Both the position numbers and the translations under genes were made by a program. The notes beneath the pieces were generated by a model. It made no database searches. It worked only from the letters and a program-made list of their open reading frames with translations, and was not told where the DNA came from. From Anaeromyxobacteraceae bacterium (GTDB lineage Bacteria; Myxococcota; Myxococcia; Myxococcales; Anaeromyxobacteraceae): 64,000 nucleotides of DNA. Positions within the stretch are counted from its first letter, which is position 1; each line of letters starts with the position of its first letter. The stretch covers positions 3,072,001 through 3,136,000 of the forward strand of contig JASGHJ010000002.1 in NCBI GenBank assembly GCA_047602405.1, written 5' to 3'. Shown one piece after another: positions 41,745 to 44,339 of the stretch.

Positions 41745-42521
41745 ATGGCTCAGGAGCTCCTCGGCAGGATCGCGCTCGTGACGGGCGCGAGCGCGGGGTT
41801 CGGCGAGGCGACCGTGAGGCGGCTCGCCGCGATGGGCGCGAAGGTCGTCGCCGCCGCGCGGCGGCGCGACCGGGTGGAGGCGCTCGCCCGCGCGGTCGGG
41901 GACGACGCGGTGCTGCCGCTCGCGCTCGACGTCCGGGACCGGGCCGCGGTGATGGCCCTGCCGGCCTCGCTGCCGGCCCCCTTCGCGGCGGTCGACGTCC
42001 TCGTCAACAACGCCGGCCTCGCCCTCGGCCTCGAGCCCGCCCACCGCGCCTCCCTCGACGAGTGGGAGACCATGATCCAGACCAACTGCCAGGCGCTCGC
42101 GACCGTCACCCGCGCCTTCCTGCCCGGCATGGTCGAGCGCGGCCGCGGCCACGTCGTGAACCTCTCCTCGGTCGCCGGCACCTACCCCTACCCGGGCGGC
42201 AACGTCTACGGCGCGACGAAGGCCTTCGTGCACCAGTTCTCGCTCAACCTCCGCGCCGACCTCCTCGGCACCGGCGTGCGCGTCACCTCCATCGAGCCGG
42301 GCATGGCCGACACCGAGTTCTCGGTGGTCCGCTTCCAGGGCGACCGCGCGAAGGCCGGCAAGGTCTACGAGGGCATGACCCCGCTCTCCGCCGACGACGT
42401 CGCCGACGCGATCGCCTGGGCGGTCACGCGGCCGCAGCACGTGAACGTCAACACGATGGAGCTCATGCCGACGCAGCAGGCCTTCTCCGCCTTCGCGGTG
42501 TCGCGCAAGCCGCAGCCCTGA
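41745..42521 (+). CDS. YdfG-like NADP-dependent short-chain dehydrogenase
   Basis: VTGASAGFG, NNAGLALG, YPGGNVYGATKAF, IEPG. Confidence 0.9.
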   Translation: MAQELLGRIALVTGASAGFGEATVRRLAAMGAKVVAAARRRDRVEALARAVGDDAVLPLALDVRDRAAVMALPASLPAPFAAVDVLVNNAGLALGLEPAHRASLDEWETMIQTNCQALATVTRAFLPGMVERGRGHVVNLSSVAGTYPYPGGNVYGATKAFVHQFSLNLRADLLGTGVRVTSIEPGMADTEFSVVRFQGDRAKAGKVYEGMTPLSADDVADAIAWAVTRPQHVNVNTMELMPTQQAFSAFAVSRKPQP

Positions 42522-42531
42522 GCCAGCCGGG

Positions 42532-42650
42532 CCCCCGGCACCGTCCGTCCCCCGGCACCGTCCGTCCCCCAGCACCGTCCGTCCCCCAGCACCGTCCGTT
42601 CCCCAGCACCGTCCGTTCCCCAGCACCGTCCGTTCCCCAGCACCGTTCGT
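42532..42650 (+). repeat. Tandem repeat, 7 x 17 bp (YCCCCRGCACCGTYCGT)
   Basis: Units start at 42532, 42549, 42566, 42583, 42600, 42617 and 42634, with no spacers. Confidence 0.95.
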
Positions 42651-42660
42651 CCCGAGCGTA

Positions 42661-42680
42661 GGGCCCGCGTCAGCGGGCCC
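42661..42680. other. Short perfect hairpin
   Basis: GGGCCCGC-GTCA-GCGGGCCC. Confidence 0.5.
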
Positions 42681-42731
42681 GGAGACGAGGGACGCCCGTG
42701 CTGATCCCCTCTCCTGGTGGCGTTTCCGATG

Positions 42732-43001
42732 GGCCGCCTCGCGGGGTCTCTCCGCTCCTCGGGCGCAAGGCAAAGGCCCGCCGCGTCGGGGAGCCTGGAG
42801 GCGGCGCCGAGGACGGGCAGGCCGCGGCACCACCACGCGCGCCGGGCGAGACGGGGGAACGTTGGGGAACGTGGCAGAAGCGCGTCGATGATGGAGGTGC
42901 GGTGCTGGCCGCCTCGCCCGTCACGCTTGGTGCAGATCGCGGCTCCGATCTCGGGCGGGCCTGCCGGCGCCCTGCGGGGCGGAGAGACCCCGCAGGCGGC
43001 C
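42732..43001 (+). repeat. Structured ~270-bp element with terminal inverted repeats, copy A (MITE/REP-like or ncRNA)
   Basis: Ends GGCCGCCTCGCGGGGTCTCTCCGC and GCGGAGAGACCCCGCAGGCGGCC are near-perfect complements; homologous to the reverse complement of 43097-43338. Confidence 0.75.
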
Positions 43002-43096
43002 TACGAAGCGTGGAGATGTGGTGAGGCCGAGACACGAGCGGGGGAGCGACGAAGGTATCGCCGGGCCTCTCCCGCCCCCACGCCACCGCCCCTCGC

Positions 43097-43338
43097 GGCC
43101 GATCGCTGGGCCTCTCCGCCCGGAGGGCCCTCGGCAGGCCCGCCCAACATCGGAGCCGCGATCTGCGCGGAGCGTGCCAGGCGAATCACGGTGCCCTCAC
43201 CTCCACGGTAAGGTCCCGCTCGCCTGGCACGCGTGGACGCGCCGCGGGTCACCACCAGCTCCGTACCGCCTACCAGGATCCCCACGCGGCGGGCCTTTGC
43301 CCAAGGGCCCGAGGACGGAGAGGCCCAGCGAGGAGGCC
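43097..43338 (-). repeat. Structured ~242-bp element with terminal inverted repeats, copy B (inverted relative to copy A)
   Basis: CGCTGGGCCTCTCCG and CGGAGAGGCCCAGCG termini; internal 13-bp stem GCGTGCCAGGCGA/TCGCCTGGCACGC; two exact 18-nt matches to copy A. Confidence 0.75.
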
Positions 43339-43460
43339 GCCACGGTGACGACGGCAGGACCGCCGGGGAAGGATCGAACGATCCGGCTGGCCGCCACGGT
43401 GACTGCGGCAGGACCGCGGCAGGACCGCCGGGGAAGGATCAGTCGATCCTGCTGGCCGCC
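43335..43460 (+). repeat. Imperfect ~54-bp direct repeat overlapping the sigma factor 3' end
   Basis: GGCCGCCACGGTGAC...GCAGGACCGCCGGGGAAGGATC...GATCC.GCT at 43335-43388 and 43389-43453; the second copy has an extra 11-bp duplication. Confidence 0.85.
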
Positions 43461-44339
43461 TCGGCGCCGTCCGGCCAGCCGATCTGCTCGGCGACCGGCT
43501 CGAGCTCGCGGCGGAGCTTCTCGAGCGCCCGGATCTCGAGCTGGCGGGCGCGCTCGCGCGAGAAGCCGAAGTGGTGGCCGAGGTCGCGCAGGGTCTCCTT
43601 GCCGTCGCCCATGATGCGCGCCTGGATGATGTGCCGCTCCCGCGGGTCCAGGCGGGCCATGGCCTCCTGGATGCGCCGGGCCACGAGGGCCTCCTCCTCG
43701 GCGCGCGCGAGCTCCTCGTCCTGGGGCTCGGCCTCGGCGGGGGTGAACTCGAGGTGGGTGCTCGTGCCGTCGGCGACCGGGGCGTCGAGGGAGAGGTCGC
43801 GCCCCTCCATCCGCTGCTGCATCTCGACGACGTCGGACGGGCGCACGCGGAGCTTCTTCGCGACGAGGTTGACGTCGAGCCCCTCCGACTCGAGCCCCTT
43901 GCCGGGCGTCATGCGCTCGATCTCGTGCCGGGTGCGGGCCAGCGAGAAGAAGCTTCCGCTGGGCCTGGGTCGTCCCGATCTTCACGAGCGACCAGGACTT
44001 CAGGATGTGGTTCTGGATGTAGGCGCGGATCCACCAGACCGCGTACGAGATGAGGCGGATCTCCTTGTCGGGATCGAACTTCTGGACCGCCTTCATGAGG
44101 CCGATGTTGCCCTCCTGGATGAGGTCCGCCATGCGCAGGCCGTAGGAGCGGTATTCGAAGGCGACCTTCACCACGAAGCGCAGGTTCGCCTCGACGAGGC
44201 GGTGGGCCGCGCGGCCGTCGCCCTGGTCGCGGAACTGGCGGGCGAGGCTCCGCTCCTCCTCCACGGTGAGGAGCTTCACGCGGTTGATCTCGCGGAGGTA
44301 CTGGTCGAGCGTGCTCGTGCTGGTCGGCGTCCGGTTCAT
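43439..44339 (-). CDS. RpoH/sigma32-family RNA polymerase sigma factor (frameshift near 43950, probable sequence error)
   Basis: [40 protein letters not shown], RpoH box TTQAQRKL, region 4 [27 protein letters not shown]. Confidence 0.92.

Follow-up and report, generated by a model that had tools for sequence, protein, structure and literature searches.

A large, REP/REPIN-like intergenic repeat with a nested, covarying fold in an Anaeromyxobacteraceae genome

Two inverted units, A and B, that lie between convergent genes in a 64,000-nucleotide stretch of an Anaeromyxobacteraceae bacterium (the window) very probably belong to a dispersed repeat instead of forming one RNA gene. The repeat carries no gene, is lineage-specific and varies in position, and its fold and a set of unpaired bases are conserved. 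Most likely it is selfish mobile DNA moved in trans rather than an RNA gene. We give roughly even credence to a fuller reading, in which a genus-restricted, gene-less intergenic repeat with a nested fold spreads in the manner of REP/REPIN elements, without TSD, via an enzyme encoded elsewhere. No published description of this repeat family was found in open-licence papers, supplements aside. The features of the locus are as follows (window coordinates, strand).

41745..42521, plus strand: upstream gene, short-chain dehydrogenase (Pfam adh_short), with its stop 210 nt upstream of unit A
42533..42652, plus strand: seven tandem copies of a 17-nt unit, a separate feature that runs into the head of the small REP
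42643..42694, plus strand: small REP-like hairpin of ~50 nt, from a different, abundant family
42713..42730, plus strand: leader of unit A, conserved; starts CCTG, 17-20 nt outside the stem
42731..43002, plus strand: unit A; the outer stem contains conserved internal loops and leads through an asymmetric central bubble to the inner hairpin at 42822-42942
42741-42754/42980-42993 and 42774-42782/42954-42962: outer-stem arms of unit A
42843-42849/42914-42920: inner stem of unit A noted in the initial annotation
43003..43095, no strand: spacer between arms A and B
43096..43339, minus strand: unit B, an inverted paralog of A, ~70% identical; inner hairpin 43156-43247
43105-43118/43316-43329 and 43136-43144/43288-43296: outer-stem arms of unit B
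43178-43184/43220-43226: inner stem of unit B noted in the initial annotation
42774/42954 (A) and 43136/43288 (B): the AGGCCCGCC/GGCGGGCCT stem
43340..43464, minus strand: leader of unit B with local 54-65 nt tandem duplications of the leader
43439..44339, minus strand: downstream convergent gene, sigma-70-family factor; its stop lies 100 nt from unit B

The unit A leader likely marks the outer boundary of the element. All motifs quoted in the initial annotation were located in the sequence, with the terminal stem of B ending at 43329 instead of 43330. The 9-bp stem that was described there as invariant is indeed perfect in A and B, but its second position varies across the family and is mismatched in some copies. 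Each unit by itself folds far better than its shuffles, with z scores of -7.1 for A and -8.3 for B (0 of 200 shuffles in each case). The sigma-70-family gene, which we take to be rpoH-like, is frameshifted near 43950 in the assembly, and related contigs have 2 extra bases there; this is either an assembly indel or a recent break.

Units A and B are two of 20 full units which, together with 2 fragments, occupy 14 sites in the genome of the window (G000; 6.16 Mb, 74% GC). The units are 243-274 nt long and 57-92% identical to each other (median 72%). Seven of the 14 sites are doublets, all seven of them tail-to-tail; the spacer is 91-154 nt in six and ~1 kb, of lower GC and with foreign cargo, in the seventh. 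One doublet partner has collapsed to its outer stem, and 6 full copies have no full partner. These partnerless copies and the median identity imply that complementarity between A and B is not what is being kept, in line with the initial annotation. A coding role was rejected, the ORFs over the units being frameshifted between copies, and a tRNA/tmRNA search returned nothing. One doublet in this genome encloses a lower-GC ORF without a Pfam match (L012, C2:278533-279363), and so does one doublet in another genome of the genus (G012, L224:3285-4640).

With genes predicted by a simple home-made caller (5090 genes in G000), all 14 sites lie between convergent genes, compared with 689 of 4208 intergenic regions (16%; p 1e-11); for the small REP the corresponding figure is 70 of its 144 intergenic sites (p 4e-5). 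Units start 22-210 nt after a stop codon in the sense orientation, with a leader that begins CCTG 17-20 nt beyond the stem, and at all seven non-doublet sites it is the 5' end that is nearer a stop. Thirteen of the 14 sites are on C2, which makes up 61% of the sequence (p 0.01), whereas the small REP is distributed evenly between C1 and C2. That ~50-nt family forms 227 blast clusters in G000, and its association with the units (4/14 versus 73/675, p 0.056) is not significant. Inverted copies of it stand on either side of a small GIY-YIG nuclease gene, with 6 tandem copies upstream (G000:C1:1892788-1893592), which makes the two a candidate REP-nuclease pair. In addition, the small REP is often found ~1.5 kb upstream of the HNH domain in a second multi-copy HNH family, present at 16 loci of G000 (for example, C1:428379 and C2:2929023).

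From A and B alone it had been proposed that each unit keeps its own nested pairing, and the larger family bears this out. In an alignment of the 20 copies, 95.9% of the cells are paired and 21 of the 58 pairs have changed on both sides. None of 500 shuffles equalled this, a count which overstates significance and is not an R-scape-grade p-value, since the sequences are related and also served to derive the structure; slid partners were 37-47% paired. On module trees, parsimony requires a minimum of 32 Watson-Crick swaps, spread over 20 pairs. Fifteen of them fall in the inner hairpin, where they affect 10 pairs, and these are not explained by terminal homogenisation. Covariation neither disappeared in the larger alignment nor was limited to the termini, the two outcomes that the initial annotation had named as speaking against its claim; it extends into the inner helices. 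In a core alignment of 36 sequences from four species, double changes are seen at 11 of 15 pairs. The outer stem and the inner domain give conflicting trees, which suggests that inner domains are exchanged.

The repeat appears to be restricted to the genus. A model of the core structure matches 15 of 37 genus genomes, 4 of which were used to build it, and none of 39 genomes from other genera of the family. In the 11 genomes beyond those four, sister families have their own outer stems. Through weak matches, multi-copy sister families were recognised in G011, G012 and G020; they combine different outer stems with the common inner core. A first model (R1), run under stricter filters, had matched 4 of the 37 genomes of the genus and 2 of 151 from the order. 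A motif scan for the G000-type outer stem, which is blind to the sister families, found three true homologs in 21 GTDB stretches (L060, L069 and L075, all Anaeromyxobacter sp.) and none in 38 metagenome and 2 viral stretches, and a plasmid search gave no match. Doublets are also present in G048, G051 and G012. In G020, three near-identical units stand in direct tandem (L227:2962-4263).

Comparison of orthologous sites indicates how variable the positions are. Among 19 loci examined for the junction between the dehydrogenase and sigma-factor genes, 15 relatives keep the gene order; the junction measures 34-113 nt in 13 of them and 396 and 431 nt in the other two, versus 924 nt in G000. The nearest relative, G010, has no element at four of four tested orthologous sites, one of which retains a leader-like remnant. 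Positional orthology of units across species was found neither at the junction nor at these G010 sites. At a fifth site (tsf), a copy is present in both genomes. This common copy and the leader-like remnant suggest that some of the differences are losses and not new insertions. In G010, what we take to be an IS21-like remnant directly follows a unit that has lost most of its inner hairpin (L024:3385-3660).

The initial annotation suggested looking for transposase or RAYT genes flanked by the same termini, and none adjoins any copy, in G000 or, as regards Y1_Tnp, in 12 other genomes. In G000 no gene of the Y1_Tnp, RT, GIY-YIG, HNH or DDE type was found next to a unit. In G000 and the 12 further genomes, every Y1_Tnp match is more than ~15 kb away from the nearest unit, by a comparison of positions by eye that is constrained by weak family scores and fragmented assemblies. 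The 6 Y1_Tnp matches of G000 have unrelated flanks. The best share of a public sequencing run was 0.13, the organism being absent from these runs; no excision reads were seen, and in four runs no piece spanned the element, which speaks neither for nor against expression. Its 8 RT matches are all group II intron copies away from the units, and none is a retron RT: seven are identical (for example, C2:1212228-1213682), the intron in each of the two that were read stopping directly in front of a start codon, and the eighth is a deleted copy. No DDE_Tnp_1 element with the exact TIR described below was found in G000, G051 or G050. Two units in G011 adjoin truncated HNH genes.

HNH genes also occur in ~1.8-kb cassettes bounded by the IS50-type TIR that is described below for G051, with inverted arms of 150-200 nt and a lone ORF of ~380 aa, helical plus HNH (L306-L308, L321-L324, L331, L334, L342 and L344); in G021, two of three copies show TSD-like repeats of 9 and 11 bp. 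This HNH gene was considered as a transposase and rejected. The cassette arms show no homology to the units (4.2 bits at best versus 3.5 in shuffles), the cassette ends are IS50-type, and the HNH genes of G000 lack TIRs and lie away from the units. A structural model of the protein (pLDDT 77, pTM 0.43) matched nothing at E<=0.001 and gave only weak HNH and ParB-like hits, and no phage relative of the ORF was found. The gene is likely a passenger or cargo of the cassettes.

In one genome, G051, the repeat is a platform for other elements and has received IS50-type ends, an IS1111-type element in the linker and, at its end, a group II intron. The model has 46 matches there, mostly inverted pairs 400 or ~1790 nt apart, and 20 loci were retrieved. 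One subfamily forms a discrete element of 780-800 bp, 91-98% identical between copies and collinear with the doublet of the window, with 19-bp TIRs. Both TIRs are present at 12 loci, 9 of which have a group II intron at one end; the three intron-free copies all have exact TSDs, of 8, 12 and 10 bp. Group II introns at or just inside an IS50-type TIR were seen in G051, G020 and G050 (L292:608-902, L320:710-2708, L348).

The long pairs of G051 carry an IS110-family element whose sub-terminal repeats are 7 and 3 nt away from the element's ends, a signature of IS1111 (PMC11187229). It sits at the same 3'-linker position in eight of eight copies (L286:1386-2777 and seven other G051 loci). The non-coding region downstream in the element contains 8- and 9-nt guide-like matches to both target flanks. 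This element targets the repeat and does not move it; as a mobiliser it was rejected, given that it interrupts one arm.

These findings raise the question of whether the doublet as such is an old IS50-type (IS4 family) MITE, inserted by a DDE transposase acting in trans into hairpins between convergent genes, with ends since eroded in G000 and arms that keep a fold ending or protecting both transcripts. We regard this as unlikely. The TIR, which resembles IS50-type ends, was scored with a matrix trained only on the ends of intact IS50-type elements (99th percentile 9.1). All nine scanned ends of the G051 subfamily exceed the 99th percentile, with TIR scores of 13.7-22.5. Intact IS50-type elements, which are found in 8 of 37 genus genomes, G000 and G010 included, match the G051 TIR at 11-14 of 19 positions and have TSDs of 8-11 bp in five of six cases. 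Several A leaders begin with CT at -17 and match in part.

However, only 2-3 of the 20 G000 leaders exceed the 95th percentile, none of the seven G000 doublets has a TSD, and no G051-type TIR is present in that genome. None of 50 other units, the older G051 doublets included, exceeds the 99th percentile. An IS50-type transposase was not found in G051 itself (assembly 81% complete), and DDE transposition needs no invariant inner bulges. Intergenic flanks turn over fast, so that the missing TSDs may reflect erosion. The IS50-type footprint in G051 is the only direct trace of movement in the repeat family. Since clear ends of this type are seen in one young G051 subfamily and no TSD is seen in the family of the window, they are most simply explained as secondary capture of one doublet.

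It is also rather doubtful that each unit serves as a domesticated 3'-end RNA element acting in cis (a terminator, a stabiliser or an RNase III site) under selection in the mRNA. The arrangement would suit such a role: units follow stop codons directly in the sense orientation, most of those at 18 further loci do so again, and in doublets each transcript receives one unit. Moreover, the bcr1 repeat is transcribed and shows compensatory changes (PMC3184786). On the other hand, a few copies in G020 and G011 face a gene start, the host genes are unrelated housekeeping genes, and their orthologs manage without a unit. Taken as RNA, the sense strand gives the better fold in all 20 copies, but this difference is confounded by G-richness; departures from Watson-Crick pairing comprise 17 G-T and 14 A-C, so neither strand is favoured. 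Rfam gave no hit at the gathering threshold in the window, the matches by E-value being at chance level, and none for the sister units. The lack of an Rfam match and of a G-U preference, together with the 20 copies and the empty sites in G010, tells against the non-coding RNA that the initial annotation had offered as one option.

In quasi-palindrome correction, one arm of a hairpin can template the other during replication. The paired changes could then be mechanical and the fold unselected, an explanation that we consider improbable. The stems are long and GC-rich, blocks are common to partner arms in modular mosaics, and the collapsed partner and the local tandem duplications next to unit B suggest that the hairpins disturb replication. 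Nevertheless, 20 unpaired positions are invariant in all 20 copies, and mismatches persist across species without being perfected. Column identity is 0.89 for paired and 0.74 for unpaired positions. Paired columns are less variable even in the young copies of G051, where 7 of 206 paired against 13 of 86 unpaired columns vary, and 15 of 204 against 14 of 81. Finally, it is very improbable that the unit derives from a SINE-like RNA which the RT of the resident group II intron has retro-inserted, or is a relic of a retron ncRNA: the identical RT copies of G000 and an outline of outer stem, bubble and long hairpin like that of the retron msr-msd would fit, but no intron domain or msr match was found, G012 has ~10 units and no RT match (assembly 56% complete), and the inverted doublets would be left unexplained.

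For the preferred reading, a REP/REPIN-like repeat moved in trans, the following course may be envisaged. A folded single strand would be recognised and moved by an enzyme encoded elsewhere, with the bulges and linkers possibly serving as the protein recognition surface. Insertion would leave no target duplication, as with HUH (RAYT/IS200-type) enzymes, and the HUH/REP-type substrate mentioned in the initial annotation would fit the anatomy of the units. Convergent gene ends may be used because insertion is harmless or the DNA single-stranded there. Inner domains may be swapped between copies by gene conversion, and singles would arise partly through hairpin deletion. A more specific and much more tentative proposal is that the units are the folded substrate of an undescribed in-trans mobiliser: a hairpin at two levels (unit and doublet), with conserved bulges and without RAYT, TIR or TSD, which serves genus-wide as a landing platform where an RNA-guided IS1111, a group II intron and IS50 ends converge.

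Several known systems resemble the repeat in part. Retrons and integrons differ clearly: no retron RT adjoins a unit in G000, and integron attC sites have GTTRRRY/RYYYAAC core ends, which were not seen by eye in the alignment, and form direct-repeat arrays after cassette genes, while the hosts here are housekeeping genes and the arrangement is inverted. The G051 subfamily is similar to IS50-type (IS4 family) MITEs in its 19-bp TIRs and TSDs of 8-12 bp, neither of which was clearly seen in the window copy. IS1111 elements target REP and attC hairpins (PMC11187229), and the G051 element is similar in the spacing of its inverted repeats, its guide-like region and its fixed site in a foldable repeat; here, in contrast, the target is a new repeat family, and the association is seen in G051 and not in G000. 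The bcr1 repeat of the Bacillus cereus group (PMC3184786) is likewise a dispersed repeat, of 150-400 nt, with a stable fold, compensatory changes and non-conserved positions. It differs in its 5-bp direct repeats and demonstrated transcription, the G000 repeat lacking TSDs, and it is a precedent for covariation in a dispersed repeat.

REP/REPIN elements provide a close parallel. REPINs are inverted doublets with compensatory changes (PMC3116915), and REP dimers and convergent placement are described in PMC3733652. Shared with the present repeat are gene-less intergenic palindromes, inverted doublets or heterodimers, variable spacers and compensatory changes, as well as the bias to gene 3' ends and convergent regions, the lineage-specific families and the singlets as remnants (PMC3116915, PMC3733652). 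By contrast, the unit here is 240-350 nt with nested stems as opposed to 20-40 bp, the arms are ~70% alike, the GTAG/CGTC tag was not seen at the stem foot of the G000 units in the alignment, and RAYT adjacency, the REPIN hallmark, was found beside no copy. Given its unit size, the missing tag and the lack of any RAYT found beside a copy, the repeat is not filed as a REPIN; we describe it as non-autonomous and REP/REPIN-like, but large. It adds a further family to that group, and provides a natural combination of an IS1111 guide region and a new kind of target repeat and, in G051, a structured repeat recruited into an IS50-type MITE. Strong covariation arises here without an RNA gene, which is a warning for ncRNA screens in GC-rich genomes.
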